From Escherichia phage HK1: a stretch of 44,319 bases of DNA. Below are positions 5,365-26,354 of this stretch, in pieces. The notes under the pieces were generated by a model. That model saw nothing but the letters and a program-made list of their open reading frames with translations. It was not told the DNA's origin and did not search any database. Each line of letters opens with the position of its first letter. Positions within the stretch are counted from its first letter, which is position 1. Location: the sequence record PP514360, one strand, 5' to 3'. A program made the translations under genes and the position numbers.

Positions 5365-5368
5365 ATCT

Positions 5369-5587: not shown

Positions 5588-5600
5588 CGTCATGTCTCCC

Positions 5601-5623
5601 AAAAATGGCGGGACAAGCCCGCC
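5601..5623 (-). terminator. intrinsic terminator/attenuator-like hairpin
   Basis: Minus-strand GGCGGG-cttgt-CCCGCC followed by AUUUUUG, between the zinc-ribbon gene and the next gene. Confidence 0.4.
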
Positions 5624-5630
5624 GTATTAA

Positions 5631-5804
5631 TTATTTTTGCTCTGCGCGGTAGCGGCGCTGCCGTTCGCGCTCTTTTTTATTGCGGCACGATTTGCACTCT
5701 GCCCGATACCCGTCCGGGCTTCGCGCAGTCTTACCGGTGTATTTATGGAACTGGGATAGCGGTTTAACGCAGCCGCAATTACTGCAACGTTTTTCTTCAA
5801 TCAT
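5631..5804 (-). CDS. small zinc-ribbon protein with basic C-terminal tail (candidate transcription factor)
   Basis: MIEEKRCSNCGC...AECKSCRNKKERERQRRYRAEQK: CxxC...CxxC arrangement plus Arg/Lys tail; GAGG SD upstream of ATG at 5804; promoter TTGCTG-17-TATAGT at 5836-5864. The longer track ORF start at 5876 lies within the promoter motif. Confidence 0.5.
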   Translation of the reverse strand: MIEEKRCSNCGCVKPLSQFHKYTGKTARSPDGYRAECKSCRNKKERERQRRYRAEQK

Positions 5805-5835
5805 CTCTAAAATCCTCGATATGGCTAACCGGCAC

Positions 5836-5870
5836 ACTATACCGCTACGCGACCAATTCAGCAACCAATA
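5836..5870 (-). promoter_or_regulatory. sigma70-like promoter with ATTGGTTGC motif
   Basis: Minus strand ATTTATTGGTTGCTG; TTGCTG-17 nt-TATAGT; upstream of the zinc-ribbon gene. Confidence 0.45.
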
Positions 5871-6123
5871 AATCACAGTCGGCTATGCTGTCGATAACGC
5901 GAACGTCCGCACCGCGGCGGGCCATTCGCTCATGTTCTCGTACCTGGTGCGGCTTAGGTTTACCGCCTGGGCGCTTCACTTCGACGAAAACTATCTTGCC
6001 GTTGATGATGATAATCAGATCGGGCGCACCTGCGCGCCCCTCCCAAGCCACTTTGCGGCAGAATCCGCCGACGGCTTTCACCCGTCTCATCAAGTGACTT
6101 TGGATCTTGCCTTCTGGTGTCAT
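5845..6123 (-). CDS. VRR-NUC domain nuclease
   Basis: GAPDLIIIINGKIVFVEVKRPGGKPKPHQ matches the VRR-NUC core; ATG at 6123 overlaps the DNA polymerase stop (TAATG). Confidence 0.65.
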   Translation of the reverse strand: MTPEGKIQSHLMRRVKAVGGFCRKVAWEGRAGAPDLIIIINGKIVFVEVKRPGGKPKPHQVREHERMARRGADVRVIDSIADCDLLVAELVA

Positions 6124-8414
6124 TATTTCCTGTACCTGTACATAATGTCGCCTTCCGCGGCAAGCGGGAAGCCTTTCGCCCAAACCGGCAGGTCGCACAT
6201 CAGCGCGCACAACTCCTCGGTTGTGTAGTCGTCGGTATCCGGCACTTCGGTTATCAGTTCATCGTGTACGGACAGTACGATCTCATACCCCGCAGCTTCA
6301 ACGCCCGGCATGGACCATGCGAGGATATCGCGGCACAGCGCCTGCACGATGTTTTCCGTCAGTTTACCGCCGTAGGTATACTGGAATCCCCACTGGCGCG
6401 TCGTCTGATTCTCGCCCTGATATTTAATGCGTGTGCTGGTGCGCTTCTTGCCGGTGTCTTCGTCGATCTCGGTCGTCACTGACAGCGCAATGCCTGGATA
6501 ACTCATAATACGCCCCGACGGCAACTCAATTTTCAACCACCACCCCGCGGCGTTCGGGTCGTCGCGTTCCTCGTCGAAGGTTGGGTCATGCTTCGCCTTC
6601 GTGCGGACTATCTTGAGCGCTTTCTTACCATCCGGGCGAACGTTCGCGCCAGCCCAGTACGCTTTGCCAGGATTGCGGATTGCACACAACACCGCGTCTT
6701 CAAGCTCGGCCCAAAAGGCTACCGTCTTCGGGTGAGCCTCGCGCCACATGCGTTTAATCGCATCACACGTAAGCCATACGTTTTTCGGCAGTATGTAAGT
6801 CGGGCGCTCGTCCTTCTTGCCCGGCTTCGGCGGTCGCTTCGCTTCGTTAATGCGGGCGTACTCATAACCACGTTTCGCCGCCGCCCAAATGTGATCGGGG
6901 AATGTGCCCTTCATCACGTCAGCCATCGCATAAAGGTCGAGGCCCAGGTTTTTAGCGAACTGCAAGAACGCAGCTACGCCGCCGCCATAGCCAAGTCCCA
7001 ACTCACACGCCTTACCAATCTGGCGTAGATCTTTGCGGTTGGCTTTAATGTATTCCGGGTCAAGGCCGAACATCTTACCGGCAGTTTCACAATAAATATC
7101 GCGACCGGCCCTAAACACCATTAGCGCGGTTTTCTCGCCCGCGGTCCAGGCAAGGCCGCGCCCTTCCACGTTGGAGTAGTCCGCGACGACAAACTTCTTG
7201 CCCTTCGCCGGAATAATGCACCCGCGAACGGTCGAGGCCGTTAGCTTCGATATGTCATACGCCCAGTGTGCGGTCCCGCGTAACAGGGAGTTTATGCCGT
7301 TGGTGAGCATGTGCGACCGCACCCAAAACGCGACGTCGCTCTCGCCTTCACGGCGTTTAATCTTCCCTTCGTGGTCATCGCTATACTCGCCGCGTGCCAG
7401 GTTTTGAGGCTGAAAGCCTTTACCGGCCCAGCGTAGCGTGCGCTTTGCGCCGCCATACTGGAGACAACCACGGCGGCGACCATCGGCGGATAGGCCATTA
7501 ACGAGCGGATTGTACTTAGTCGACGCCGTGGATGACGCACCGAGGCGCATCTCTATAAGCACTTTGCCCTCGTCCGGGAAGTCTGGATCTTCTAGCAGGT
7601 CGTTAAGCGTGGATTTCTGCGCGTTGTGGATTGTGAACGCAGGCGCGAGGTCGCGCAGCGCTGGCAGGAAGTCATTTCCGGTTAGCTTACCGCCGAAGCG
7701 CTCCCAGGCTTCTTCCTTTAATTCTTCCTTATGCGCCTGTACCGCTTTGATCGCAGCGCGTGCCAGGTCAACGTCCACATAGAAGCCGCGGTCGTTAATC
7801 AACTGGTCAATAAGCAGGATTTCGTCTTCCTTCGGCGTATTACCCCAGTCCGGTATGCGCCAATAGACTTCCCTCATCGCGATGATATCCAGCGCGGCAT
7901 AGCGCAGGAATTTAGCCCATTCTTCAGGGTGAGTCTCGCGGGTGTAGCGGCGGATTTTGTAGGTCTTAGGGGTTGGCTTACAGAATCGTTTGATCAGCGC
8001 CTTGCCAGCCTTATCCTTCGCGTGTTCTGCGTCAACGCCAAGCACCTGGCACTGCATGTCGAGACTACCCGGCAGCGCGTGTCGGAAGGCCATAATCATG
8101 GTGTCTTCGATCTGGCACACTGGCAGGTCAATGCCCCACTTCTCGCGAATAACCAGGCGGTCAAACAGGAGGCCGTTAGCCATCACGATTTTTGCTTTCT
8201 TGCGGGATACCTGGCGGAGCGCCTTGCGCAGTTCACGTGGCATTGTGGGGGACTCGGTGCAATCCCATGTCTGCACGCGGCCCTCGTCGATGGCGTAGGT
8301 GCAAATCATAATCTCGGTGGTTGGGTGCTCTGCGTAGGCGTATGCGCCAACTTTCTTCAGGTCTACCCCGCTAAATGTCTCGGTATCGAGAAACAGGCGT
8401 TCGAAGTCTTTCAT
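6123..8414 (-). CDS. family-A DNA polymerase with N-terminal 3'-5' exonuclease domain
   Basis: 763 aa; FLDTETFSG (exo I), DYSNVEGRGLA (pol motif A, DYSQIELR-like), KACELGLGYGGG (motif B), LSVHDELITE (motif C). Confidence 0.9.
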   Translation of the reverse strand: MKDFERLFLDTETFSGVDLKKVGAYAYAEHPTTEIMICTYAIDEGRVQTWDCTESPTMPRELRKALRQVSRKKAKIVMANGLLFDRLVIREKWGIDLPVCQIEDTMIMAFRHALPGSLDMQCQVLGVDAEHAKDKAGKALIKRFCKPTPKTYKIRRYTRETHPEEWAKFLRYAALDIIAMREVYWRIPDWGNTPKEDEILLIDQLINDRGFYVDVDLARAAIKAVQAHKEELKEEAWERFGGKLTGNDFLPALRDLAPAFTIHNAQKSTLNDLLEDPDFPDEGKVLIEMRLGASSTASTKYNPLVNGLSADGRRRGCLQYGGAKRTLRWAGKGFQPQNLARGEYSDDHEGKIKRREGESDVAFWVRSHMLTNGINSLLRGTAHWAYDISKLTASTVRGCIIPAKGKKFVVADYSNVEGRGLAWTAGEKTALMVFRAGRDIYCETAGKMFGLDPEYIKANRKDLRQIGKACELGLGYGGGVAAFLQFAKNLGLDLYAMADVMKGTFPDHIWAAAKRGYEYARINEAKRPPKPGKKDERPTYILPKNVWLTCDAIKRMWREAHPKTVAFWAELEDAVLCAIRNPGKAYWAGANVRPDGKKALKIVRTKAKHDPTFDEERDDPNAAGWWLKIELPSGRIMSYPGIALSVTTEIDEDTGKKRTSTRIKYQGENQTTRQWGFQYTYGGKLTENIVQALCRDILAWSMPGVEAAGYEIVLSVHDELITEVPDTDDYTTEELCALMCDLPVWAKGFPLAAEGDIMYRYRK

Positions 8415-8581
8415 TGCTTAATCCTCACTACGGCGTCAGCGCTGCCGATCATGGAGAAGATACCGTCGGAAAGTGTTATCTCCTCGCCGTTGTTGCGAAT
8501 CTCGGCAACGGTGAAATATTCCCCCAGTAGCTTGGACCATACTCGCATTCCGACTTTTACTTCGCTGGCTTTAATGCGCAT
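8411..8581 (-). CDS. small hypothetical protein (56 aa)
   Basis: ORF below the track cutoff, read by hand (MRIKASEVKVGMRVWSKLLGEYFTVAEIRNNGEEITLSDGIFSMIGSADAVVRIKQ); stop overlaps the DNA polymerase start (ATGA), suggesting translational coupling. Confidence 0.35.
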   Translation of the reverse strand: MRIKASEVKVGMRVWSKLLGEYFTVAEIRNNGEEITLSDGIFSMIGSADAVVRIKQ

Positions 8582-8594
8582 TTTTCATTGTCCT

Positions 8595-8621
8595 ATTAAA
8601 AAGCCCGCATTAAGCGGGCTT
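8595..8621 (-). terminator. intrinsic terminator downstream of the SSB-like gene
   Basis: Minus-strand AAGCCCGC-ttaat-GCGGGCTT followed by a U-rich run (UUUUAA). Confidence 0.55.
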
Positions 8622-8639
8622 GAATAGTGGGCTTTGCCC

Positions 8640-9419
8640 TTAACGACGGCGACGTTTACGTGGTGCTTCGTCTTCGTCGTCTTCGTCCTCATCTTCATCG
8701 TCGCGTGGCTTACGACGTTTACGAGGTTTTTCATCTTCGTCGTCGTCATCGTGGCGCTTGGACTTTTTGGACTTGCGCGGCTTGTCGTCTTCGTCGTCGT
8801 CATCACGACGTTTTGACTTTTTGGACTTGCGCGGGCTTTCATCTTCGTCATCGTTGTCCAGGTCTTCGTCGGAGCAAGAAGAACCGCCACCACCGAAGGA
8901 TTCACCATCATCGCGGAAGCGCAGACCCAGCAAGCCAGCCCCGAGTCCCTTGCCGTTGGTATTGTTCCACGCCCAAATATCAATGGACACGTTGCAATAA
9001 CAACCGGAGTAAATCTCCCGTCCTTCGATCTCGTCGCCTTCTACGGTCAGACCTTGTTCCGTCTGCTTCTCGCCGAGTGACGTTTGAATGTTTGGTTGTT
9101 TGAACGATTTGGTGTTGATATACAACATGCCTTCGAATTCTTCGGTTACTTCGTCGCGCTCATCACCGTCGCGAACAGCGCACTCCTTAGAATCCTGGGC
9201 GTAGTGGCGGTCCATCCACTTATCGGCGTTCTTCTCGGATTTCAGCTTGTCGGTGAGCACTGCGCGCGCTGCCGCTTCCACTTTGTCCACCTGCGGATCT
9301 TCTTTATCCAGAAGAATCACGGCACGGTATGCCGGTTTCTGACCATCTTTTTTAGGGGTATCGCGCTCCCAAATATTAAGGAAACATACGCGCACATTTT
9401 TCAGGTTGACTTTAGCCAT
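8640..9419 (-). CDS. putative ssDNA-binding protein (DUF2815/T7 gp2.5-like) with repetitive acidic/basic C-terminal tail
   Basis: N-terminus MAKVNLKNVRVCFLNIWE resembles the DUF2815 family that commonly sits between DUF2800 and PolA; C-terminus is a tandem repeat (DDDDEDxKPRKSKKSKR). ATG at 9419 (track start at 9440 is GTG). Confidence 0.55.
   Translation of the reverse strand: MAKVNLKNVRVCFLNIWERDTPKKDGQKPAYRAVILLDKEDPQVDKVEAAARAVLTDKLKSEKNADKWMDRHYAQDSKECAVRDGDERDEVTEEFEGMLYINTKSFKQPNIQTSLGEKQTEQGLTVEGDEIEGREIYSGCYCNVSIDIWAWNNTNGKGLGAGLLGLRFRDDGESFGGGGSSCSDEDLDNDDEDESPRKSKKSKRRDDDDEDDKPRKSKKSKRHDDDDEDEKPRKRRKPRDDEDEDEDDEDEAPRKRRRR
8695..8860. repeat. intragenic tandem repeat (~57-bp unit) encoding alternating acidic/basic tail of the SSB-like protein
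   Basis: TTTTTGGACTTGCGCGG...TCGTCGTCGTCATC appears in tandem; encodes DDDDEDxKPRKSKKSKR units. Confidence 0.7.
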
Positions 9420-9509
9420 TTTACAATTTCCCATTTTCACATGTATCGGGGTTATTGTGAGCCACCCCGTTCGGCTTGGTTGCTAATCTACTTGGTTGCG
9501 CCTAAGCGG

Positions 9510-9752
9510 TCAAGCATTTTCATTAAAAAGATTTCGGGTCACGTAGTTGGTGGCGTTCTCGACCCAGCTTAGCGGCGGGCGTTCGATGTTCTTTTCCACC
9601 CAATAGACGGCAGCTTCGCTATAACCGTCGTCCAGCCAGCGGGTCGGATGGCGAATCATCCAGGCTACCATTAACACGCCTTGCACACAATGCAGGATAA
9701 AGCCCAGTGCGCCGAGCAAAAACATCAATAAGATTGCGAATACTTTATTCAT
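9510..9752 (-). CDS. small membrane protein (80 aa)
   Basis: Hydrophobic N-terminus (FAILLMFLLGALGFIL); GAGGA SD upstream of ATG at 9752. Confidence 0.5.
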   Translation of the reverse strand: MNKVFAILLMFLLGALGFILHCVQGVLMVAWMIRHPTRWLDDGYSEAAVYWVEKNIERPPLSWVENATNYVTRNLFNENA

Positions 9753-11175
9753 TGCTTAAGTCCTCGTCAGTAGCTTCCGACCACGCAGGGCGCGGGTCGT
9801 CGATTGGTGCTAACACCGGTTTAGCGGGTGCGCGTGTGATTTTAGCACACAGCTTCGCCCACACTTTCGGCTTCTCGTCCTTCAGTACCTTCTCGGCATC
9901 GGTCGGGCTGAGCAATGTTTCTTTGTACATCACATCGCGCTTGATCCGGGCCTTCGTGAAGATTTCAATCACTTCGCTCTCGTCTGCCCACTTACGGATC
10001 CCTTCCTTACCGGCAACCATCTTAAGGCCCAACGATTCGCCATCGCCCGCCATGACCGCCTTGAATACCGCGTACTCGATAGCTTTGATGTGCTGGCGCA
10101 TTGCGTCAAGTCCTTCATAAGCCTTGCGCAGTTCCGCCGCGCTCATAGCGCCTGGGGTGGATTCCTTCTTGCCCCGTTTAGCACGTCGGGCAGCCTTCCG
10201 GGCTTCGCGGGTCATATTGCGGTCTTGGTTGGCGCACTCTTCCTCGGTTGCCACGCTCACGTCGTCGCCCAGGTCTTCGTCGGTTGCCGTTGGTGGCGTC
10301 ATCGTGTCGATTGCGGCCTTCGCCCGGACGCTGCACTGGTCCGCAAATCTGCACCACTGGCACGCATCAACGCTGGGCCGGAAGTCGGCGCGGGTGAGTC
10401 CTTTTTTACCGCGGGCGTACGCTTCCAGTGCGGCGATAGCACGCTTGGACGCAAACTTCGCGAATATCTCCAGCGCTTCCACTGAGATATCCCACTCTGA
10501 CGCCCCGCCGCAATACGGCTGGAAGATAACCAGGCGCACGGTCGTAATGTCGTACATGGTTTGCAGCTTGCGCAGCAAGCCGAGCGCGTACAACATAAGC
10601 TGTTTGTTTTCTTTTGCCTCGACCTTATGCCGCCCGGTCTTCAGGTCGCCAACAATCAGCATGTACGTTCCGTCGGTCTTTTTCATGACCATGACCATAT
10701 CGGCAGTACCGAACGTTTTAATCCTGTTGCCGTCGATCTCGAATCCTGAATGAAGGACGCGGGTCAGATCGGCGCGCATCTCAAGCTGGACAAACTCCGC
10801 CACTTCGAGGAGCGGTCGCCAGTGGTCGATGTACGCGTCGCACTGTTTCACCATATCGTCGTTGACCAGTACGCCGCCTTTCGGTGCTTTCGGGTGCGCC
10901 TTTACTGGCCCCTTGCCTTCATTCTCGACGTAACACCCTTTGTACGTCTTAGCGGTTATCAGCTTTTCCCCGGCAATGATGCGGTTTAGCACGACCTCTG
11001 ATACGGTGTGCATACTCGTACCATTAATCGCCGCTTGCCCGGATTCGTTCGGGATATCTTTTTCCACCACCAGGGCGGCGGGGCAGCCCATCCATTTTTT
11101 AGCACCGGATGGGCCGAGTAAAGAGTGTTCCGTGTTGCTACCGGATTGCGTTTTACGTTTTGGTTTAATCGCCAT
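9745..11175 (-). CDS. DUF2800-like PD-(D/E)XK nuclease (Cas4-like, Cys cluster)
   Basis: N-terminal HSLLGPSGAKKWMGCPAAL and C-terminal CQWCRFADQC cysteine cluster (Cas4-like arrangement); GGGTGG SD upstream of ATG at 11175. Confidence 0.65.
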   Translation of the reverse strand: MAIKPKRKTQSGSNTEHSLLGPSGAKKWMGCPAALVVEKDIPNESGQAAINGTSMHTVSEVVLNRIIAGEKLITAKTYKGCYVENEGKGPVKAHPKAPKGGVLVNDDMVKQCDAYIDHWRPLLEVAEFVQLEMRADLTRVLHSGFEIDGNRIKTFGTADMVMVMKKTDGTYMLIVGDLKTGRHKVEAKENKQLMLYALGLLRKLQTMYDITTVRLVIFQPYCGGASEWDISVEALEIFAKFASKRAIAALEAYARGKKGLTRADFRPSVDACQWCRFADQCSVRAKAAIDTMTPPTATDEDLGDDVSVATEEECANQDRNMTREARKAARRAKRGKKESTPGAMSAAELRKAYEGLDAMRQHIKAIEYAVFKAVMAGDGESLGLKMVAGKEGIRKWADESEVIEIFTKARIKRDVMYKETLLSPTDAEKVLKDEKPKVWAKLCAKITRAPAKPVLAPIDDPRPAWSEATDEDLSNE

Positions 11176-11360
11176 TATTCCACCCTTGAAAATTGAGCAA
11201 TGTAATAGTCGTGTTTAACATTGGCCCGCTTCGCGGCTTCGTTCATGGTCGATGCCAGTCCTCGGGCTTGCGTCCAGCAGCAATTCCAGTTTTGATTCAT
11301 AACAATTTCGGGCTGCTCGTCGCCGGTGATACGGCAGCGAAATAAAAAGAAGATAGCCAT
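11175..11360 (-). CDS. small hypothetical protein (61 aa)
   Basis: ORF with GGGAGA SD ~9 nt upstream of ATG at 11360. Confidence 0.4.
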   Translation of the reverse strand: MAIFFLFRCRITGDEQPEIVMNQNWNCCWTQARGLASTMNEAAKRANVKHDYYIAQFSRVE

Positions 11361-11612
11361 TTATTTTGTCTCCCAGCGGTCGATTGTTCTTGCTTCGGAT
11401 GCTACGGCGAAGCGAACATATTCCAGATTAGAATCAGCCCAAGTATAAAAGTCGGGATTAGTAAAGGTGGTGCGCTTAATTTGCGCGGGGGTGTTGCGGC
11501 GTTTATCTATTACGGCAACGCGTGACTGAAAATTGCCGATGCGTTCGAATAACCAATAGTAAGGGCGCTGGTCGCGGGAATCCACCGCCTCGATTAGCGT
11601 GAAGCGTGCCAT
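11361..11612 (-). CDS. hypothetical protein (83 aa)
   Basis: ORF with GAGGA SD upstream of ATG at 11612. Confidence 0.5.
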   Translation of the reverse strand: MARFTLIEAVDSRDQRPYYWLFERIGNFQSRVAVIDKRRNTPAQIKRTTFTNPDFYTWADSNLEYVRFAVASEARTIDRWETK

Positions 11613-11660
11613 TGTCTCGTCCTCTAAAAATAGGCCCGCTAATCTGCGGGCCGGATAATA

Positions 11661-12176
11661 TTAATCTTCCAGTTCGAAATAGGTTTCGACGATTTCTTTT
11701 AGCTCTTTGTGGAAGTCTTCGACGTCGTCATCTTCCAGCTTGGCGATTGATTTGATCTCGAACGATTCCAGCAGGTCGTCGAATTCGTCGTTCGCGTCGT
11801 CGTCATCACCACCCGCAATAATCGCGGCATACTGTTTGATTTCGTCGCGCATCTCCGCCAGCGGATCGGCATCTTTCTTACCTTTGCCTTTCGCCGGTGC
11901 TTTCTTAGACTTAGCCGGTTTTTCGTCTTCGGCATCGTCGTCGTCATCTTCTACGACTTCTTTTTTAGCCTTACCTTTCGCCGGTGCTTTTTTAGATTTA
12001 GCCGGTTTTTCGTCTTCAGCTTCATCGTCGTCATCTTCGACAACTTCTTTTTTGGCCTTAGACGGCTTCTTGTCTTCCTGCTTACCAACGGCAGCGCCAA
12101 CGGTTTCATAATGCTTTGCAATGGTTTCCAGTGCTACTACGCCGCGAGTGATCAGGTTTACGATTTGCTCAAACAT
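11661..12176 (-). CDS. acidic protein with tandem Lys-rich/Asp-Glu-rich repeats (histone-H1-like KAPAKGK units)
   Basis: Start at MFEQIVNL (ATG 12176) with GGAGA SD; internal 29-aa unit KKEVVEDDDDEAEDEKPAKSKKAPAKGKA repeated twice; strongly acidic C-terminus. The track ORF start at 12356 runs through the promoter region and is unlikely. Confidence 0.55.
   Translation of the reverse strand: MFEQIVNLITRGVVALETIAKHYETVGAAVGKQEDKKPSKAKKEVVEDDDDEAEDEKPAKSKKAPAKGKAKKEVVEDDDDDAEDEKPAKSKKAPAKGKGKKDADPLAEMRDEIKQYAAIIAGGDDDDANDEFDDLLESFEIKSIAKLEDDDVEDFHKELKEIVETYFELED
11881..12057. repeat. intragenic tandem repeat (~88-bp unit, two copies) in the acidic repeat protein gene
   Basis: CCTTTCGCCGGTGCTTT(C/T)TTAGA(C/T)TTAGCCGGTTTTTCGTCTTC...TCGTCGTCATCTTC twice in tandem; resembles the SSB-gene repeat unit at nucleotide level. 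Confidence 0.7.
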
Positions 12177-12413
12177 GGTATATCTCCGATTGGTTAAGTT
12201 TAGGTGTCGGCAGTTAACTTCGTCGGTGGCCTTAACATATTGCCAGGTTACGCGTTCTCCCGTTCGGGTAGTGGACCTGGTTATATAATCACGGTTGGGA
12301 ATCCTGACACTTCGATCCGGCCCCTGCGTTGCCCCTCTCCAGTTTGCGTCCTGCATCCTGTCGACGGGGTGAATAATAGATTGGTTGCAGGATGGGTGTC
12401 AACAACTAATTTC

Positions 12414-12446
12414 AAAAAAAAGCGCCGAGGCAAAATGCGACGGCGC
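12414..12446 (-). terminator. terminator-like hairpin plus U8 in the divergent control region
   Basis: Minus-strand GCGCCG-(13-nt loop)-CGGCGC followed by UUUUUUUU (A8 on the plus strand at 12414-12421); no coding gene upstream on that strand. Confidence 0.35.
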
Positions 12447-12517
12447 TAACCAATAAGAGACAATGAGACGGGAATTATTATTACACGCGTGCGCGCCCGT
12501 TTCAATATCCAAAGGAT

Positions 12518-12546
12518 TTGACACCGTGCAGTTTTGGGTGTAGTTT
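12518..12546 (+). promoter_or_regulatory. sigma70-like promoter for the plus-strand block
   Basis: TTGACA (12518-12523), 17-nt spacer, TAGTTT (12541-12546), ~30 nt upstream of the SD/ATG of the HTH regulator gene. Confidence 0.45.
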
Positions 12547-12577
12547 CGTTGGTCATTAACCAACTGAGGGCAGAGCA

Positions 12578-12907
12578 ATGAATGTAAACGACGCAATCGA
12601 AATGTTAACGAAGACTGTTTGCAGTGAGACAAGCCGGTCATGGGCATATACCGATGCCGTGGGGGCGGTGTTATTTGAAATCGAACGACTGCGGCTTACC
12701 GAAAAAGAATTGCGCGCCAGGCTGGAACTACTCAACGGTACGGCAGCAAGCAAGCTGCAAAAGCACAATGAGGAAATGGAAGAATACAAAAAACAGGTTA
12801 TCCGTTTACGCGATGAGGGGAAGTCATGGGCAATGATCGCGGAGTTGACAGGAATTAATCAGAGCACCGTGCGATCCTGGGTACGCAATAACAAAACTTC
12901 GAAGTAA
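12578..12907 (+). CDS. HTH DNA-binding protein (putative transcriptional regulator)
   Basis: C-terminal KSWAMIAELTGINQSTVRSWVRN is a classic helix-turn-helix; GAGGG SD upstream; first gene of the plus-strand block, downstream of TTGACA-17-TAGTTT. Confidence 0.6.
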   Translation: MNVNDAIEMLTKTVCSETSRSWAYTDAVGAVLFEIERLRLTEKELRARLELLNGTAASKLQKHNEEMEEYKKQVIRLRDEGKSWAMIAELTGINQSTVRSWVRNNKTSK

Positions 12908-12917: not shown

Positions 12918-15182
12918 ATGAGCTTAATTAAATTCGCTGTAACAAAACCCGCTAAAAAAGGCGAAAAAGCCAGGGCGGAAAACTTCCAGATGACCACCGA
13001 TGAATTTTTCGAATTTATCAAAGATGCGAAAGAAATATCCTCGGTGCATATCAACAAAACGGAAGATAAAGCCGAGTATGCACGCCGCAAGCGTAAGGCC
13101 GACGGCATCGTGGCGTATACCAGTGACGGATTGCGTCGCAAGACCAGTGCGGTGGACCGCTCGATCCTGTTCTTTGATATTGACCGCACCGACACTCGCA
13201 CCTTGCGCCGCTGCCGTAAGGCTTTCATCGACGCGGGTCTGGAACACGTATTCCACACAACCACCGGCGACCGCCACCCACTGAAAGGTGGAACGCGTTG
13301 CGCTCGCTTCCTGGTGCTCACTGACAAGCCTGTACCGGCGGAAGACCTGGGCCGTGTCCAGTATGCGCTATTACACCAACTTGGTCTGTCAGATGTGGAC
13401 TTCGACGATTGCACGAAAGACACAAACCGCCTGATGTACCTACCACACCAGCAGTCTGTAATAAAGTGTCACTACGGCAAACGTGCCCGCGTCCGTCGTC
13501 TGCTTCGCCTGGCGGATACGCTTGGCGTGGAGAAGGAAGAAGTACGCCGCGAACTGACCCAGGGCGACGACGCAGTGGCAGACGGCATTCTTGACTGGTG
13601 CTTCCAGGCAGGATTCGAGGAGTTATCTTCCGGTCGCGGTTATGAAGTGCCGTGCCCGAACGAACATCTGCACAGCGGCGAAGGGTCGACGGCTATCATG
13701 GTTAAGGATGGCGAGATCCGTTTCAAGTGTATGCACACCGGCAACGAGTGTTGCTCCGAACTGAATAGACACCAGCACCTGGCGCTGCGTCTTATCGGGA
13801 TCCCGGACCACCTGAACGTCGAGCCACACAATATGTCCCGTAAGCAAATAGCCGCCATCCTTCCGGGGCTGGACGACGAGGAAGTCGAATCCTTATATGA
13901 ACATATTGTTGATGCGGTTGGCGACGGCGAAGAATATGGCGTGTGCACCGATGCGGATCTGGATAATGAGCCGGTTGCGCTGTTCAGTAAGCACGACCCG
14001 ATCATCGAGGGGTTGATTAACTTTAAATCAACCTGGTATATGGCTGGTGAGTCGAATATCGGTAAGTCTTTCTATGTGCTGGGCCAAATGGGCGCGGTTG
14101 CCGCGGGTATCCCGTTTGGCGGTGCGAAGGTCGTCCAGTCTCATTGCTTCTATTTCGACGCGGAAGGCGGCGAAGCCTCCAACCAGCGCAAAGAAGCATT
14201 GCAGATTAAATACGAGCACGACCTGGACAAGCTGCACATTATCGACCTGCAGTCTCGCGGCTGGGATATCACCAGCAAGTCCGGTTTGCGCGAAGTTATC
14301 AGCTTTATCAACCGCACCGCTAACGGCGAACCTGTTGGCCTGGTGGCGTTCGACTCACTCAACCAGACTGTTGCTCTGCGGTCCGCCGATGCTAAACCGT
14401 TTGACGAGAACAACGCCAGCGATATGGGTGAAGTGGTCAAAGCGCTGAAGGCCATTGCGGAAAACACAGGTGGCAGTGCGGGCGTCATCCACCACCCGGC
14501 GAAGGGTGCAAACGGCAGCAGAACCCCACGCGGATCCGGCGCACTGCATGGCGCTGTCGATTCAGCTTTCTTCCTGGAACAGCCGGACGACAACCAGCCG
14601 GGACAACTTAACCTGTATCACGAAAAGTCACGTAACGGCATCAAGCAAGCGCCGCGTGGCTTCGTCCTGCTCAAGTGCAAGGTGGCGGTAGATCTCCGCA
14701 AGTCAGAAGCGTTCGCGTCGCACCAGTCCACCAGCACCGGGCCAGACTTCGGTGACGTAGTTGCTGGTTGGGACGTCAAACCAATTGCGTCCACCCCGCG
14801 CGACGAGACTTTATACCTCGTACCGGTCGCCCTGGCACCGTTCGCTATAGAACAGGCGAAGGCCGCAGGAAAAGCCGCAGTTAAGGAAGAGAACACCGCC
14901 GGACCGCGCACCGAAAAAGAAAAGGTACTTTACGCGGCCCTGGAAAAACTGATGGAAGATAACCCGGACCATACTGGTTTCAGTAAATCGGCAATCGTCC
15001 GCCAGGCAGGACTCGCGAAGGGGGGCACTTCGACGAAGGCAATCGACGATATGGTTGAGCGCGGCGTGATCGGTTTCTATACAGATCCGCACACCGGGGC
15101 CATATATGGGTCGTCGAATTTAGTCATCAAATCGGATATCCCCATCACGCTTTCGGCGACCGATGACGACCTGAACGATTAA
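12918..15182 (+). CDS. DNA primase-helicase (N-terminal primase-like domain, C-terminal RecA-like ATPase)
   Basis: 754 aa; LFFDIDRTD (DxD, primase-polymerase-like), Cys/His cluster CPNEHLH...CMHTGNEC, Walker A GESNIGKS and AFDSLNQ in a RecA-like C-terminal half. Confidence 0.75.
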   Translation: MSLIKFAVTKPAKKGEKARAENFQMTTDEFFEFIKDAKEISSVHINKTEDKAEYARRKRKADGIVAYTSDGLRRKTSAVDRSILFFDIDRTDTRTLRRCRKAFIDAGLEHVFHTTTGDRHPLKGGTRCARFLVLTDKPVPAEDLGRVQYALLHQLGLSDVDFDDCTKDTNRLMYLPHQQSVIKCHYGKRARVRRLLRLADTLGVEKEEVRRELTQGDDAVADGILDWCFQAGFEELSSGRGYEVPCPNEHLHSGEGSTAIMVKDGEIRFKCMHTGNECCSELNRHQHLALRLIGIPDHLNVEPHNMSRKQIAAILPGLDDEEVESLYEHIVDAVGDGEEYGVCTDADLDNEPVALFSKHDPIIEGLINFKSTWYMAGESNIGKSFYVLGQMGAVAAGIPFGGAKVVQSHCFYFDAEGGEASNQRKEALQIKYEHDLDKLHIIDLQSRGWDITSKSGLREVISFINRTANGEPVGLVAFDSLNQTVALRSADAKPFDENNASDMGEVVKALKAIAENTGGSAGVIHHPAKGANGSRTPRGSGALHGAVDSAFFLEQPDDNQPGQLNLYHEKSRNGIKQAPRGFVLLKCKVAVDLRKSEAFASHQSTSTGPDFGDVVAGWDVKPIASTPRDETLYLVPVALAPFAIEQAKAAGKAAVKEENTAGPRTEKEKVLYAALEKLMEDNPDHTGFSKSAIVRQAGLAKGGTSTKAIDDMVERGVIGFYTDPHTGAIYGSSNLVIKSDIPITLSATDDDLND

Positions 15183-15275
15183 ATTTTGCGCGCATTGGTT
15201 GCCATTTTGAGCGTTTTTATCTGGGCGCATTGGTTGCCGTGTAGTGTGAATATAATGCATAGTTATGCAATAAAA

Positions 15276-15450
15276 CTGCATAAAACAAACGGGACAAAAA
15301 GCGGGACAAACAGGAGGCGGGACAAAGCGGGACAGCACCCCGTCCCACCCACGGATGACGCGGCCTGGCGAGGAGCGGGACAGCGGGACAGCACCCCAGT
15401 CTTTCAGACTAGACGGGGGGTCTGTCACCCCCCTCGTCTGAGACTGCATA
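15276..15450. repeat. copy A of duplicated non-coding module (GCGGGACA array plus GC-rich hairpin)
   Basis: CTGCATAAAACAAAC followed by four direct GGGACA repeats, GGGAC-agcacccc-GTCCC, two more GCGGGACA, then hairpin CAGTCTTTCAGACTAGACGGGGGG-tctgtca-CCCCCCTCGTCTGAGACTG. Near-identical to 32076-32250. Confidence 0.8.
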
Positions 15451-15605
15451 AAATCCGGGATTGCATATTGCACGGCAGCAGGGTGCGTATTGCGGTCGTC
15501 GACGAACTAGGCAACCAATGCGAGTTGCGGAATGGTGGGCGAAAAATGCAGTTTGCAGTAACAGCAGATAGCGATCGACTTTTTCATGCGCATGATTAAT
15601 ATTGG

Positions 15606-15634
15606 TTGCATTCGTGCCCGCACCCTGCTAGATT
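15606..15634 (+). promoter_or_regulatory. sigma70-like promoter with ATTGGTTGCA motifs
   Basis: TTGCAT-17 nt-TAGATT followed by GGTTGCACACCAACA and the AAGAGGA SD of the gene at 15663. Confidence 0.45.
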
Positions 15635-15662
15635 GGTTGCACACCAACAAGAGGACTGAACA

Positions 15663-15998: not shown

Positions 15999-16268
15999 AT
16001 GGTCCGCAGACGAGCTAAACAGCTTTCGTGGCATATTCCGCTGCATTGCATACGCATATGGGCTAAGAATGCGACTGAGGGCGATTCTGTGTTCTGGAGC
16101 TATCGCGACGATGTGAAGCCGTTGACGCAGACACGCTACTTGCACAAGTTCGCAGCAAAACACGATTTCAGGGTGCGGACTTCCTTGCAACCAATGGGAA
16201 TCCGTATTACATTACGCCGGAAGCCCGCCGTTGAGCGGGTAGGCAAACACTGGAGACTAAGCAAATGA
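15999..16268 (+). CDS. hypothetical protein (89 aa)
   Basis: ORF with AAGGGG SD upstream of ATG at 15999. Confidence 0.45.
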   Translation: MVRRRAKQLSWHIPLHCIRIWAKNATEGDSVFWSYRDDVKPLTQTRYLHKFAAKHDFRVRTSLQPMGIRITLRRKPAVERVGKHWRLSK

Positions 16269-18720: not shown

Positions 18721-18924
18721 TGCTTGACTCGCAACCAACATAGACGCCATACTGCGACCAATCAACGAGAGGAGTAATCAAGATGGCACGTAAAGATATT
18801 TGGGTATTAGCGATCTGGACCACCGCGGCTTTTATCGGCATGGTTATTTGCGAATTGATATAGCCCGCAGCCATACGGACCGTGGTATATTGTCCACGGT
18901 CCACTAATCAGGAATTAATTAAAT

Positions 18925-20067
18925 ATGCACCCGCAAACTAAAATTACCGATGAGCAATTGATCGCAGAAATTCAGGCAGGGACTACGGTTAAAGAGATTG
19001 CGAAGAAATACGGGATTGCCCTGCGCAATGTCTATATGCGGAAGGCCCGCCTGTCGAAAAAGGGAATTGGTCACGGCAATGATGCCGTGATCCGTAAGCG
19101 CGTTGCCGATGGTTTTGGGGTTAAGCGCGTATCGGCCCTGGTGCGCGGAAATGGCGAAGAGGTCATGTCGTGGGTCATCACTGAGCAGGACAAGGAGCGC
19201 CAACTCGAAGCTATGCGCGCTGTTGTCGAGGGTATGAACAGCGAAATAACACCGGCAGCGCCAGTAAACGCTCCGCCAGTACCGATCCAGGCGCTCGACT
19301 TGCTTAACCTGTACACGGTGTCCGACTTCCACCTGGGCATGTTGGCATGGGGAGAGGAGACTGGCGAAGACTGGGATATGGCGATCGCCGAAGACCTGTT
19401 CTACCGCTGGTTTGTCGAAGCCTTCGCACGCGCACCAGACGCAGGCACTGCCGTGATCAATATCCTCGGCGATATGGCGCACTTTGATAGCCTCGACGCC
19501 GTCACTCCCGCCAGCGGTCACGTATTGGACGCCGACACCAGATACCAGAAGTTGGTCCGCTACATGATTCGTATGGTGCGCAACGTCGTCGAACTTGCCC
19601 TGCAAAAACACCACAAAGTCAAACTGCTAATCGTCCAGGGGAATCATGATGAGTCGGGTATGATCTGGCTGGCTGAGATGTTCAATACTCTGTACGAGAA
19701 CGAGCCGCGCGTCGATGTGGATACGTCCCCGGACGTTTACAAAATGGTGCAGCACGGAAAGACCACGCTATTCTTCCACCACGGGCACAAAGCGCGATTC
19801 GATGTTATCGAGCAGGTTATGATCGCTAAATTCAGACAGGCGTTCGGGGCGAGCGAATACAGCTACGCGCACGTAGGCCATTTGCACCACCAGAAGATTG
19901 TTGAATCCCGCAACATGATTGTTGAACAGCACAGGACGCTCGCAGCGAAAGACGCCTACGCCAGTCGTGGCGGTTGGATGTCAGGTCGCAGCGCCAACGT
20001 CATTACCTACAGCGCCAACTACGGCGAAGTAGCGCGCTTAACCATTAGCCCGGAAATGTTGAAGTAA
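18925..20067 (+). CDS. HTH domain fused to calcineurin-like metallophosphoesterase (phosphatase or Mre11/SbcD-like nuclease)
   Basis: N-terminal TVKEIAKKYGIALRNVY (HTH); C-terminal SDFHLG, ILGDMAHFD, QGNHDE, HHGHK, GHLHH matching the metallophosphoesterase motif series in order. Confidence 0.7.
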   Translation: MHPQTKITDEQLIAEIQAGTTVKEIAKKYGIALRNVYMRKARLSKKGIGHGNDAVIRKRVADGFGVKRVSALVRGNGEEVMSWVITEQDKERQLEAMRAVVEGMNSEITPAAPVNAPPVPIQALDLLNLYTVSDFHLGMLAWGEETGEDWDMAIAEDLFYRWFVEAFARAPDAGTAVINILGDMAHFDSLDAVTPASGHVLDADTRYQKLVRYMIRMVRNVVELALQKHHKVKLLIVQGNHDESGMIWLAEMFNTLYENEPRVDVDTSPDVYKMVQHGKTTLFFHHGHKARFDVIEQVMIAKFRQAFGASEYSYAHVGHLHHQKIVESRNMIVEQHRTLAAKDAYASRGGWMSGRSANVITYSANYGEVARLTISPEMLK

Positions 20068-20197
20068 CGGCAACCAGTACCCCTCCCAGCCTGCCGATTT
20101 GGTGGGCTTTTTTGTGCCTGTTATAATCCGCCTTAGATGGCAGGGCCGTCTCCTATGTCGCCGATGGTCGGCGCATATGAACAAAAGGGCTTATATC

Positions 20198-25074: not shown

Positions 25075-25186
25075 CCCGTCTGCGGACCCCGACGAAGATT
25101 TGATGATTGACGTGAAAAATATGGAATGCGGGGCGAAGCTAAGGGCGCAGGTGCTGGAGTTGCAGCAAATAATTAAGGGGCCATAA
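24956..25186 (+). CDS. putative o-spanin (Rz1-like outer-membrane lipoprotein)
   Basis: MLRALTALIVVLTLSACGSS: signal peptide with LSAC lipobox; Pro-rich mature part; overlaps the 3' end of the i-spanin candidate out of frame; AAGAGG SD. Confidence 0.45.
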   Translation: MLRALTALIVVLTLSACGSSSVPLMPLTESALRPPCKFDNPSADPDEDLMIDVKNMECGAKLRAQVLELQQIIKGP

Positions 25187-25198
25187 TGGCCCCTTTTT
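25176..25198. terminator. terminator between convergent genes (GGGGCC-N-GGCCCC family)
   Basis: GGGGCC-ataat-GGCCCC followed by TTTTT on the plus strand; sits between the plus-strand spanin pair and the minus-strand gene ending at 25201. Confidence 0.6.
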
Positions 25199-25200: not shown

Positions 25201-25965
25201 TTAGCGCGGAATACCGCAAATCTCGTTGAGAGTTTTCACGTCCAGCGCCACCGCCGAGGATTTTGGCTTGTCCGGGTACGGGATGAATTGCTCAACTTCA
25301 GGCCATGCCTTAATCAGCTTCTTATCGGTATTGTGCATATCCAGCACGCCGGTAACAGTTAGTTTGAACGCGTCATACTTAGCCCGCAACTCACGGCGGG
25401 CCTTGTCGTTACGGTCTAGGCGCTTGCAGAAATCATGGTCCGCCGGGTAGTCTACGCGACCGCGTGGGAGATATATCGGCAGCGCTTTCCCGTCCTCGTC
25501 CACTTCGCACACTGAAGCCAGCATAACTGTCTCGAACCCCGGAACGATATCGCCGAGATCGGGCGCGAGCTTATTCATATATTTCTCTTCCCAGTACCCG
25601 CGATGCACGCGGTATTGGCGACCGTCTCCACTCAATGACAAGGTGCGAACATTTCCGCCTGCGTTGATTTCGAAAGTGGCGTCGTAAACGCTGCCGATAC
25701 CTTTCGGGCGGTCGGAGTTATAACTATACGTCGCCTTGTTGGTGTATACGCTGACGCCGTACATCTGCGACTGGTCGTCGCGAATTGCCTTGATATGCTC
25801 GCGGAGCGCTGCGAACGTGCGAATGCCTTCTGGCATACAGTCCAGCGTAATGGCATAAGCCAGATCGCGCGAGTCCATCATGATTTGTTTGGCTTCGGTC
25901 GCTATTTCGTGGTCGCGCAGGATGTTAGCCAGGATCTGATTTTTAATGTCTTTCGTCAGTCTCAT
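25201..25965 (-). CDS. hypothetical protein (254 aa), antisense to the structural module
   Basis: Minus-strand ORF with GAGGA SD upstream of ATG at 25965; ends at a shared convergent terminator (25176-25198). Confidence 0.6.
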   Translation of the reverse strand: MRLTKDIKNQILANILRDHEIATEAKQIMMDSRDLAYAITLDCMPEGIRTFAALREHIKAIRDDQSQMYGVSVYTNKATYSYNSDRPKGIGSVYDATFEINAGGNVRTLSLSGDGRQYRVHRGYWEEKYMNKLAPDLGDIVPGFETVMLASVCEVDEDGKALPIYLPRGRVDYPADHDFCKRLDRNDKARRELRAKYDAFKLTVTGVLDMHNTDKKLIKAWPEVEQFIPYPDKPKSSAVALDVKTLNEICGIPR

Positions 25966-26004
25966 TTTTATGTCCTCATTATTGGGGCTTTCGCCCCGGT
26001 TGGT

Positions 26005-26319: not shown

Positions 26320-26354
26320 CTTGTTTTCCTTCATATCTCTGTTGGTGTGCAACC

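Follow-up and report, generated by a model that had tools for sequence, protein, structure and literature searches.

The virulent E. coli phage HK1 carries a recurrent 9-base word, ATTGGTTGC, which is best read from its sequence context as an operator for a phage regulator. The whole stretch of DNA that we analysed (the window; 44,319 nt, PP514360) is a near-complete Dhillonvirus genome of the HK578/EP23-like type. We infer with moderate confidence that the word is the operator, or an operator half-site, of a phage protein that represses early and middle promoters; the likeliest such protein is gp45, which would both bind the word and exert the repression. Almost all predicted sigma70-type promoters of early, replication, accessory and moron genes would have such sites in their cores (-40 to +12).

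In total, 18 copies of TTGGTTGC were found on both strands of the window, versus 2.12 ± 1.5 (maximum 7) in dinucleotide shuffles, and 13 of these 18 copies lie in non-coding DNA, which makes up 7.5% of the genome. Intergenic enrichment, which the initial annotation had named as a check of its proposal, was thus confirmed. The form ATTGGTYGC occurs 16 times in the window versus 0.94 expected. Allowing one mismatch in the 9-mer gave 25 sites versus about 14 expected, so that the gain was mostly noise. Sites of the form TTGGTYGC number 22 in the window. All sites listed in the initial annotation are present, some of them with coordinates that had been 1–5 nt off; the copies at 5849, 18754 and 36989 were absent from that list. 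A search of the window against Rfam found no RNA families.

The arrangement of the copies is irregular. Paired copies are 9–35 bp apart (12, 13, 14, 16, 17 and 31 bp in forward pairs), and most sites are single copies or direct repeats; such irregular spacing does not correspond to a simple dimer model. The fixed direct-repeat spacing of 10–11 bp that is typical of Lambda CII or PhoB sites was not observed, the forward pairs being spaced by 12–31 bp. Exactly three TTGGT-N5-ACCAA dyads were revealed (12549-12563, 15633-15647 and 26342-26356), each of them at a predicted start site, and together with one everted pair they are the only approach to the palindrome expected of a symmetric dimer. The dyads mentioned in the initial annotation are thus a minority form; singles and direct repeats predominate.

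A close association with promoters, also proposed at the outset, was clearly seen: 13 of the 22 TTGGTYGC sites are located within -40 to +5 of the 30 best sigma70-like promoters, which occupy 2.8% of the genome (binomial P ~3e-15). Eleven motif-bearing sites possess a -35-like hexamer, a spacer of 16–18 nt and a -10 element with A2 and T6 (e.g., TTGACA-18-TATTAT; TTGACC-17-TAGATT; TTGCAT-17-TATATT). The promoters of structural genes lack the motif.

In four predicted promoters of the window a forward copy is located at -39, and its TTGC serves as the -35 element. The leftward promoter TTGCAT(2922-2917)-17-TATATT(2899-2894), predicted to transcribe gp30, Dam, hyp28 and hyp27, contains minus-strand copies at 2919-2927 (-39) and 2902-2910 (-22). 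The promoter of the Lar-like gene, TTGCTG-17-TATAGT (-10 at 5841-5836, minus strand), is located within the 3' end of the VRR-NUC gene and has forward copies at 5861-5869 (-39) and 5849-5857 (-27), the latter being a TCGC variant, ATTGGTCGC. The plus-strand promoter of hyp48 and downstream rightward genes (15601-15649) is composed of a forward copy at -39 (15601-15609, with TTGCAT as the -35), a 17-nt spacer and TAGATT (15629-15634), and a second forward copy (15632-15640) overlaps the -10/start and runs into the dyad TTGGTtgcacACCAA (15633-15647). Finally, the leftward promoter of the lipoprotein and DUF6453 genes (42420-42453) has a minus-strand copy at -39 (42445-42453, TTGCAT as the -35), a 17-nt spacer, AATACT (42425-42420) and a reversed partial copy, CAACCAAAT, downstream of the start. 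The geometry initially noted, with a TTGC(N)(N) hexamer 16–18 nt from TATATT, TATAGT or TAGATT, was found to be correct at 2919, 5861, 15602 and 42445. It should be mentioned that this class, with its direct repeats between -40 and -15 and its weak -35 elements (TTGCAT, TTGCTG), also resembles an activator-dependent architecture.

In other predicted promoters the copies are reversed. The strongest leftward early promoter, TTGACA(12402-12397)-18-TATTAT(12378-12373), contains one reversed copy in its spacer (-22; 12380-12388, plus strand), and the leftward promoter TTGACC(9513-9508)-17-TAGATT(9490-9485), predicted to transcribe the SSB, hyp37 and DNA polymerase genes, contains two plus-strand copies, at -21 in the spacer (9491-9499) and at -5 at the start site (9475-9483). 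Two reversed copies were also revealed in the rightward promoter TTGACT(18724-18729)-18-CATACT(18748-18753), which follows the lysis-operon terminator and is predicted to transcribe a 26-aa ORF and gp56; these minus-strand copies lie at -29 (18731-18739) and at -6 (18754-18762, a TCGC variant). In the rightward early promoter TTGACA(12518-12523)-17-TAGTTT(12541-12546) on the plus strand, predicted to transcribe gp45 and the helicase-primase gene (12518-12563), the dyad TTGGTcattaACCAA (12549-12563) covers the predicted start. A reversed copy at -34/-33 provides TTGCAA as the -35. The plus-strand copy at 1240-1248, which reads GCAACCAAT on the minus strand, overlaps the -35 TTGCAA (1250-1245) of the leftward hyp26 promoter (-10 TATAGT at 1226-1221), and a degenerate inverted partner TTGGTTTC (1229-1236, minus strand) is a perfect TTGGTTGC in relatives. 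The minus-strand copy within hyp49 (16187-16195) is reversed at -33 with respect to an internal promoter-like sequence on the plus strand, TTGCAA(16185-16190)-17-TACATT(16208-16213).

One more leftward promoter, TTGCAC(26384-26379)-18-TATATT(26360-26355), located inside the structural module (26340-26384) and predicted to transcribe orf104 and an Nmad5-like gene, contains forward copies on the minus strand at -22 (26363-26371) and -8 (26349-26357) and the dyad at 26342-26356. This cassette is conserved while its cargo gene varies among phages. The extended sequence ATTGGTTGCACACCAACA is indeed common to 15632-15649 on the plus strand and 26340-26357 on the minus strand, as had been noted; it does not strictly follow the -10, as had also been stated, and overlaps its last three bases.

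The remaining copies are located outside clear promoters. The extended form GCGCATTGGTTGCC is present twice, as described in the initial annotation (15190-15203 and 15225-15238), and provides two forward copies on the plus strand (15194-15202 and 15229-15237) to the left of an iteron block; the second precedes TATAAT (15251-15256) by 15 nt. On the right side of the block there is a single minus-strand copy, GCATTGGTTGCC (15511-15519), which is conserved between variable flanks and has no convincing promoter. The conserved copies at 15194, 15229 and 15511 thus flank the iteron block outside clear promoters, which counts against the reading of the word as a repressor operator. An isolated minus-strand copy, GTTGGTTGC, inside a minor tail gene (36989-36997) is not associated with a good promoter; it may have arisen by chance or be an orphan site.

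Thus, the copies occupy several positions in the core promoter. Besides the forward copies at -39, copies in the spacer at about -22 and at the start site from -8 to -5 are found in either orientation, and a further position is +4. In the window and in distant relatives the overlap with core elements, expected of an operator, extends over -39 to -31, -23 to -14, -9 to +4 and +4 to +12. Nine of the 11 predicted promoters have a copy between -23 and +4, so that a protein bound there must clash with RNAP. A box of fixed position and orientation that replaces the -35 describes the forward -39 class (four promoters in the window and 10 in relatives) and does not describe the reversed, spacer and start-site copies. 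The presence of both orientations and of several core positions is incompatible with a fixed RNAP contact and supports the earlier view, which took the word for the site of a regulator and not for an element of the polymerase alone.

The motif is better conserved than its surroundings. Across 19 Dhillonvirus loci, identity amounts to 98.1% in the motif columns and to 87.3% in other intergenic columns, and the copies have kept their places while the spacers that separate them have changed. In the more distant relatives L140, L141, L143 and L145 (~70% nucleotide identity), ATTGGTTGC is still the top over-represented word (e.g., 13 copies versus 0.75 expected in L141; 11 exact 9-mers versus 0.18 expected in L145) and occupies the same positional classes as in the window; in BLAST comparisons of their intergenic DNA with the window almost nothing aligned except the iteron block. 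At the start site of the gp45 promoter a dyad or a complete copy is present in the window, in L140, L141 and L143, and in every aligned Dhillonvirus locus but L004, which lacks the dyad. In distant relatives a full reversed copy is located at +4 of this promoter; in L145 its spacer has only a partial (6/9) match. As for phage specificity, a search of 5,426 genomes of E. coli and of 72,556 plasmids gave no match to either the promoter cassette or gp45. A scan of IMG/VR for ATTGGTTGC-N(4-34)-ATTGGTTGC returned more than 120 mostly unrelated contigs, many with 54-nt tandem arrays, and was uninformative for Dhillonvirus.

Exclusion and co-conservation point to gp45 as the most likely protein to bind the motif. 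The gene of this 109-aa protein (12578-12907, plus strand) opens the rightward early operon and immediately precedes that of the replicative helicase-primase. The protein is composed of a variable N-terminus, a long helix (23-79) and a C-terminal helix-turn-helix (HTH; 84-108). Its Pfam matches above the cut-off are HTH_23, Sigma70_r4_2 and HTH_28, and the AF2 model (pLDDT 83) contains the long helix and the HTH. Among 25 homologues hardly any variation is seen in the last 60 aa, which contain the recognition helix INxSTVRSWVRN, whereas the N-terminus is hypervariable. Among all compared phages gp45 is the only recognisable DNA-binding (HTH) protein in common. The best structural matches of its C-terminal domain in Foldseek were the HTHs of resolvase, Hin, LuxR and IS transposases, with a probability of 0.9–0.99 over ~35 residues and non-significant E-values (at least 0.4); PDB sequence searches with gp45 and gp56 gave generic or designed-repeat matches only. 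HTHs of these types typically read an asymmetric half-site of 9–12 bp as a monomer. Since gp45 has no catalytic or receiver domain, its annotations as a transposase, resolvase or recombination nuclease inhibitor gamma are unsupported.

Among the relatives we found no case of an altered recognition helix accompanied by an altered motif. The most divergent homologue, P0026 of L145 (44% identity), has STIKNW in place of STVRSW and keeps ATTGGTTGC; the unchanged motif would fit conserved contact residues and would also fit the irrelevance of gp45. The other candidate binder, gp56, which combines a weak N-terminal HTH with a metallophosphatase, was rejected because it is absent from L140, L141, L143 and L145, where the motif is kept. 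We also considered gp45 as a binder of the GGGACA iterons. In L143 the standard recognition helix is combined with GGTGCCA iterons, and this change of the iteron word without a change of the helix indicates that gp45 is not tied to the iterons.

It can be hypothesized that after infection the motif-bearing promoters would be fired by the host RNAP, and that gp45 would then build up and fill the motif sites. Its occupancy would compete with RNAP because each promoter has at least one copy in the spacer by the -10, over the start or on the -35. As a result, early and middle transcription, including that of gp45's own operon, would be turned down, in a Cro-like shut-off with autoregulation.

The clean split of the promoters into two classes by orientation and -35 quality, in the window and in distant relatives, raises the possibility that a single phage protein activates the forward -39 promoters and represses the TTGAC(N) promoters with reversed copies, thereby acting as an early-to-middle switch. 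The activated set, with weak TTGCNN -35 elements, would comprise the gp30-Dam, Lar, hyp48-to-lysis and lipoprotein promoters and would resemble PhoB, lambda CII or T4 MotA targets; the repressed set, in which reversed copies occupy the spacer or the start site, would comprise the leftward early, SSB-polymerase, gp45 operon and gp56 promoters. The constant position of the forward copy (-39 ± 1 in the four window promoters and 10 promoters of relatives) and the location of the earliest replication and recombination genes under reversed-class promoters agree with such a switch. However, the forward class is equally good as plain sigma70 promoters (TTGCAT-17-TATATT scores 11.0 versus 11.2 for the SSB and rightward gp45 promoters), its second copies at -22 or -8 are placed where a bound protein should block RNAP, the spacing between copies is variable, and Pfam scans of most small early- and lysis-region proteins revealed no MotA or AsiA families. 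We therefore consider a dual switch unlikely. More doubtful still is the proposal that the sigma-region-4-like HTH of gp45 reads a 9-mer doubling as the -35, the orientation and position of the site setting a two-way genome-wide switch; the same low probability applies to its parts taken jointly, namely that gp45 represses the immediate-early promoters with a consensus -35 and replaces sigma region 4 at the TTGC middle promoters. If true, this would amount to sigma appropriation in its minimal form, by one protein alone, in a siphophage without its own RNA polymerase or sigma factor.

Reading of ATTGGTTGC by a host DNA-binding protein, which would tie the phage promoters to host physiology, would account for a motif that stays invariant in spite of the divergence of the gp45 homologue to 44% identity, and the known hosts are all Enterobacterales. 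We judge it very unlikely: the phages themselves encode a conserved HTH protein whose recognition helix is invariant and whose own promoter contains the putative operator, nothing in E. coli genomes corresponds to the promoter cassette, and this recognition sequence is not known for any E. coli regulator. Still less probable is a direct reading by host RNAP, in which the word would be an extended -35 or an upstream element peculiar to this phage family and no regulator would be involved. TTGC of the forward copies does supply the -35 at a fixed position in several promoters, and the reversed copies at -34/-33 act likewise, but many copies lie in the spacer, over the -10/start or at +4 in either orientation, often where a separate TTGAC(N) consensus already serves as the -35; three conserved copies lie outside any clear promoter, and the conserved (A)TTGG bases upstream of TTGC are outside any known sigma70 contact. 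The position of gp45 immediately upstream of the helicase-primase gene and the three conserved GCATTGGTTGCC-subtype copies that bracket the iteron block (15256-15451) could point to a signal for DNA transactions, i.e., sites for a replication initiator or helicase loader, or genome organisation by gp45 as a partner of the helicase-primase. This is the most improbable of the readings considered, as the great majority of copies are dispersed at early-region promoters without clustering at an origin and the second iteron block (32056-32249) has no copies nearby. Clustering of the iteron type is a property of GCGGGACA, which forms arrays at 15290-15390 and 32090-32190, and not of the dispersed ATTGGTTGC.

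Repression by a phage protein, probably gp45, thus remains our preferred reading of the motif. Research on phage defence and therapy makes wide use of Dhillonviruses (HK578, EP23, SECphi4/18, BASEL Bas18 and others). The literature searched yielded nothing relevant on the motif or on Dhillonvirus or HK578 promoters and transcription start sites, nor did it contain an account of the transcription programme of Dhillonviruses or RNA 5'-end data from any of them. With the motif, the predicted promoters for host polymerase can be mapped almost completely across the early, middle and moron units, and gp45, whose present annotation as 'transposase', 'resolvase' or 'nuclease inhibitor gamma' appears to be wrong, is nominated as a regulator. 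It would also explain the short cassette kept ahead of variable accessory genes, which may be of use in phage engineering and in predicting the expression timing of anti-defence genes. The motif would be a clean example of an asymmetric operator in several geometries; the regulon that it defines is a solid and moderately novel one of a familiar kind, and not a new principle of gene regulation.

Several known systems share features with that of HK1. The stoperators of L5/Bxb1 (gp71/gp69, 13 bp) are likewise short asymmetric sites with ~20–30 copies per genome, mostly intergenic and conserved across relatives, and presumably the site is in both cases read by a single HTH. However, stoperators have one orientation, are located mainly within transcription units and block elongation in lysogeny, whereas about half of the HK1 copies are forward and half reversed, mostly in promoter cores of a virulent phage. 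The stoperator model was ruled out because of this mixed orientation relative to local transcription. The immunity repressor of a temperate phage, as known for cluster-A stoperators, does not fit either: no integrase or cI-type repressor was found in the relatives' annotations or Pfam scans, and no prophage copies were found in E. coli genomes. The T4 MotA box, a 9-bp asymmetric phage element, lies on or stands in for the -35 of many middle promoters, a constant distance away from their sigma70 -10, and it matches the forward -39 class. MotA boxes, however, are centred at -30 in one orientation only, whereas about half of the HK1 copies differ in position or orientation and belong to promoters that have a normal -35; no Pfam or PHROG family of MotA-like or AsiA-like proteins was revealed among the scanned proteins, which covered most of the early and lysis regions. 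Phi29 p4, like other proteins that act both as early repressors and as late activators, is similar in that one small phage protein with sites around the -35 of several promoters could repress some of them and help others. It recognises inverted repeats at three promoters, all within one control region, gp45 is unrelated to it in sequence and structure, and a role at late promoters is not evident in HK1, whose structural-gene promoters lack the motif.

The operators of Lambda Cro, in turn, are 17-bp pseudo-palindromes in two operator regions only, whereas the HK1 site is an asymmetric 9-mer, present as single copies or variable direct repeats and rarely as a dyad, at ~11 promoters genome-wide. 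The fold of gp45, with a long helix followed by a C-terminal HTH, is arranged differently from that of Cro, with no detectable sequence similarity, and HK1 is virulent; the annotations used contain neither cI nor integrase. Like Cro, gp45 is a small HTH protein encoded by the first rightward early gene, ahead of replication genes and beside a divergent leftward early promoter; the HK1 sites overlap the cores of both early promoters, including gp45's own, and the predicted role is the same, i.e., the turning down of early transcription.

A search with the 7-kb piece around the finding matched 179 phage records at 90–97% identity, nearly all of them Escherichia or Shigella phages of the genus Dhillonvirus (HK578/EP23-like virulent siphophages). 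The window (44,319 bp, 54.6% GC) is essentially a whole Dhillonvirus-type genome. Transfer of the phage EP23 genes by tblastn gave a map with 92.5% coding DNA. The leftward replication and recombination block (2–12356) is separated by a divergent control region of 220 bp from the rightward block. The latter begins with gp45 (12578–12907), encoding a 109-aa helix-turn-helix (HTH) protein, and continues with the helicase-primase gene (12918–15182), a 480 bp intergenic region where the motif was originally flagged (15183–15662), small genes, lysis genes, gp56, terminase and then structural genes, which extend to 41173. The layout is completed by two small leftward islands (25201–26319 and 41200–42397) and a tail-fibre gene.

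Some other features of the map should be mentioned. DNA polymerase (6123–8414) has 763 aa in the window vs 1062 aa in EP23 (L001, 29110–32298); for residues ~500–735 of the EP23 protein the window has no counterpart, a difference suggestive of an insertion in EP23 (an intein or a homing-endonuclease-type element). In-frame tandem repeats of 54 and 87 nt (8656–8854 and 11867–12040) code for acidic (D/E-rich) stretches in the C-terminal part of the SSB-like product and within hyp44, the gene that opens the leftward early operon. Terminator hairpins at 25175–25195, 41179–41198 and 44298–44317 (also 31214–31230) have a common stem, AAGGGGCC(loop)GGCCCCTT, and this reuse puts GGCCCCTT among the most over-represented 8-mers of several Dhillonvirus genomes.

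The recurrence of the motif noticed in the initial annotation is real: TTGGTTGC is present in 18 copies vs 2.12 ± 1.5 expected from dinucleotide shuffles (shuffle maximum 7), and ATTGGTYGC in 16 copies vs 0.94 expected. It is also mostly intergenic, with 13 of the 18 exact sites in non-coding DNA and three of the five "coding" sites at gene ends directly upstream of the next gene. The sites listed initially were correct to a few bases, while the TCGC variants at 5849 and 18754 and an intragenic site at 36989 had been overlooked. The 18-mer ATTGGTTGCACACCAACA is indeed common to 15632–15649 (plus strand) and 26340–26357 (minus strand), and GCGCATTGGTTGCC is present in duplicate. When all sites were aligned on the motif, information content was limited to A-TTGGT(T/c)GC-(a), with no fixed flanking element.

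Both a consensus scan and a simple weight-matrix scan placed nearly every copy inside a sigma70-like promoter directed at the next gene. The proposed embedding in promoters is supported: 13 of 22 TTGGTYGC sites lie wholly between −40 and +5 of the 30 top-scoring promoter-like sequences, windows that make up 2.8% of the genome (binomial P ~3e-15), although the TTGC of the motif itself adds to the −35 score in some promoters; nine of the 13 are second copies or lie in promoters with a separate TTGAC(N) −35. The hyp48 promoter was slightly below the top-30 threshold.

Orientation is not uniform, as had been noted, and both forward and reversed copies (relative to local transcription) occupy several core-promoter positions. 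At 2919, 5861, 15602 and 42445 the forward 8-mer starts at −39, and its TTGC makes up the first four −35 bases. Copies at −22/−21, in either orientation, fill the spacer up to the −10 (2902, 26363, 12381, 9492), and those at −8 to −5, again in either orientation, lie across the start (15633, 26349, 9476, 18754). Reversed copies are found at −34/−33 with TTGCAA as the −35 (1241, 16187) and at −29 (18731), and a forward copy at −27 (5849). The TTGGT-N5-ACCAA dyads noted earlier number exactly three in the genome, each at a predicted start site: those of gp45 (12549–12563), hyp48 (15633–15647) and orf104 (26342–26356).

In the structural-gene region, the motif is restricted to the divergent orf104 promoter and one orphan intragenic site, and it is absent from promoter-like sequences upstream of terS (terminase small subunit), scaffold and major tail genes. 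Upstream of terS, just past the gp56 terminator, the sequence TTGGTG-17-TATAAT (20099–20127) with the extended −10 TGTTATAAT (20119–20127) contains no exact motif copy and may be a late promoter. At 12445–12454 (minus strand) a conserved near-copy, ATTGGTTaGC, has one inserted base; it adjoins a conserved hairpin (12423–12445) and lies downstream of a second leftward promoter, TTGAAA(12505–12500)-17-AATAAT, otherwise devoid of the motif. GC-rich stable hairpins start the predicted minus-strand transcripts of gp30 (2866–2891), hyp26 (1190–1215) and SSB (9440–9470); that of gp30 is followed by a T-run and is terminator-like, between promoter and gene.

Five complete Dhillonvirus genomes contain 17–21 copies of TTGGTTGC each, and it is among the most over-represented 8-mers in all five. 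Alignments of promoter regions (up to 19 loci) revealed footprints of the classical kind. The SSB promoter has a fixed −35, TAnATT −10 and pair of GCAACCAAG copies, with the 8 bp in between rewritten; the 17-nt spacer separating the two copies of the hyp48 promoter is highly variable, and the 15511 copy is an island of identity amid variable sequence. Identity to the window was 98.1% in motif columns (81% invariant) vs 87.3% in other intergenic columns (58.5% invariant; Mann–Whitney P = 5e-11, with columns not independent of each other). The orf104 cassette (26340–26384, two motif copies) is kept in L001–L005, whereas the first gene behind it differs among these phages: orf104 in the window and, in EP23 and AV129, a RusA-like or "Pol III beta-like moron" gene. 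The cassette behaves like a fixed slot for the expression of accessory genes.

Homologues of gp45 led us to metagenomic contigs with the same gene order and a coding nucleotide identity of ~67–72%, in whose intergenic DNA BLAST aligned almost nothing to the window except the iteron block. ATTGGTTGC is again the top over-represented word in all four (L140, L141, L143, L145), with 13 copies vs 0.75 expected in L141 (11 of 14 sites in the 7% non-coding DNA), nine copies in 6.1 kb of L140, 10 in 10.7 kb of L143, and 11 exact 9-mers vs 0.18 expected in L145. The geometric classes recur independently. Ten promoters carry a forward copy at −39 ± 1, and second copies lie at −22 to −27. Where the −35 is TTGAC(G/A), reversed copies lie at −20 to −31, and in L140, L141 and L143 the promoter of the gp45 homologue has a reversed copy at +4. 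This recurrence strongly indicates selection on the word and on its placement in the promoter core.

Pfam and PHROG scans, covering most early, accessory and lysis-region proteins, revealed DNA-binding motifs in only two proteins, gp45 and gp56. The gp56 protein (18925–20067) has a weak N-terminal GerE/HTH_28 signal (residues 8–48) followed by a calcineurin-like metallophosphatase domain; existing annotations name it "DNA repair exonuclease" or "transcriptional regulator". It has no counterpart in the four distant contigs (~70% nucleotide identity); the motif is therefore independent of gp56, which we rejected as the binder. A conserved inverted repeat, GGACCGTGG-tatattgt-CCACGGTCC (18877–18902), lies 22 nt upstream of the gp56 start codon, and a conserved hydrophobic 26-aa ORF (18783–18863, MARKDIWVLAIWTTAAFIGMVICELI) lies between promoter and gene.

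Homologues of gp45 are present in all these phages. HTH_23, Sigma70_r4_2 and HTH_28 score above cut-off at residues 65–106, and the last 60 residues are almost invariant (LELLNGTAASKL.KHN.EME.YK.QVI.LR.EGKSWAMIAE.TGIN.STVRSWVRN.K). The first 45 residues (12578–12712) are unalignable, being hypervariable or replaced; the 149-aa version of CHD5UKE2 (L004, 20200–20649) has a longer, unrelated N-terminus. Such variation suggests that the N-terminus is a modular domain for partner binding or oligomerisation, under diversifying pressure. The AF2 model (pLDDT 83) consists of a short helix, one 57-residue helix and the HTH, which best superimposes on DNA-binding domains of IS21/IS3 transposases, LuxR/NarL proteins and serine recombinases with high probability and non-significant E-values, as expected for a match of 35 residues. 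Such HTH domains usually read an asymmetric half-site of 9–12 bp, and the motif fits this habit. Annotations of gp45 elsewhere as transposase, resolvase or "recombination nuclease inhibitor gamma" are unsupported, since a DNA-binding HTH is the only domain present. Exclusion and co-conservation with an invariant word both point to gp45 as the best candidate reader of ATTGGTTGC. No joint change of recognition helix and motif was found among the relatives: the most divergent homologue (44% identity, STIKNW for STVRSW) is paired with an unchanged motif, and CHD5UKE2, with INRSTIRQW vs INQSTVRSW and a different N-terminal half, keeps all motif sites. The dyad at the gp45 promoter itself is absent in CHD5UKE2.

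The simplest reading is promoter occlusion by a motif-bound protein, because a copy lies between −23 and +4 in nine of the 11 promoters that bear the motif and on the −35 in the remainder. The gp45 protein would build up from the rightward early promoter and then lower early, middle and accessory transcription, its own included. That paired copies are irregularly spaced (9–35 bp) and occur in both orientations argues for each 9-mer being an independent unit, and the three dyads may be higher-affinity dimer sites. Alternatively, the system could be a dual switch, with the forward −39 class activated and the reversed class repressed. Forward-class promoters combine a weak TTGCNN −35 with direct repeats that span −40 to −15, and reversed-class promoters have a consensus TTGAC(N) −35 and drive replication and recombination genes. 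However, the forward class scores equally well as plain sigma70 promoters (11.0 vs 11.2) and bears copies where RNA polymerase must sit. The orientations and positions of the copies make a pure polymerase element unlikely, and reading of the motif by a host factor is possible but unsupported.

Three GCATTGGTTGCC copies bracketing an iteron block might have a role in replication, but this does not extend to the remaining copies. The GCGGGACA iterons form a second repeat family, packed into two blocks of ~195 bp (15256–15451 and 32056–32249). The blocks make up a dispersed direct repeat, 78–83% identical and 16.8 kb apart, that ends in a GACGGGGG...CCCCCTCGTC hairpin. One block adjoins the helicase-primase gene and the other lies in a 700-bp gap between the genes for tail chaperone and tape measure, an arrangement that recalls ori and crr of phage P4. 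CTGCATAA (15276, 15444, 32076, 32289, 32306 and others; eight copies vs 1.2 expected, five of them flanking the two blocks) may be an extended −10-like element (TGcATAAA). In L143 and L145 GGTGCCA repeats replace the iterons while the remaining layout is kept; as L143 has the standard gp45 recognition helix, iteron type does not track gp45, which was rejected as the iteron binder.

In the literature searched, we found no description of the motif, of Dhillonvirus promoters or of gp45 function, and papers describing genomes from the genus do not treat promoters. Such a system is unsurprising in principle, but the finding is solid and useful: phages of this genus are much used in defence-system research, and it gives them a promoter map, an engineering cassette and a candidate regulator.

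Minus cI, the arrangement parallels that of the early region in lambda: (i) a strong leftward early promoter and a rightward one face apart; (ii) the first rightward gene encodes a small HTH protein and is followed by replication genes; (iii) presumptive sites of this protein overlap both early promoters and its own start site. The closest functional analogue is lambda Cro and its operators, while the L5/Bxb1 stoperators are closest in site logic (asymmetric, many copies, conserved) and the forward class resembles T4 MotA boxes in promoter geometry. Nevertheless, the system departs from each named family in at least one tested defining feature. Unlike Cro-type operators, few sites are palindromic; unlike stoperators, they are of mixed orientation and the phage is virulent; unlike MotA boxes, many copies lie outside the −35, and no MotA or AsiA homologue was detected among the proteins scanned; unlike CII- or PhoB-type sites, their spacing is variable. 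Thus, it is a new case of the general kind in which a phage regulator has its operators in early promoters, and its flexible half-site grammar is unusual.
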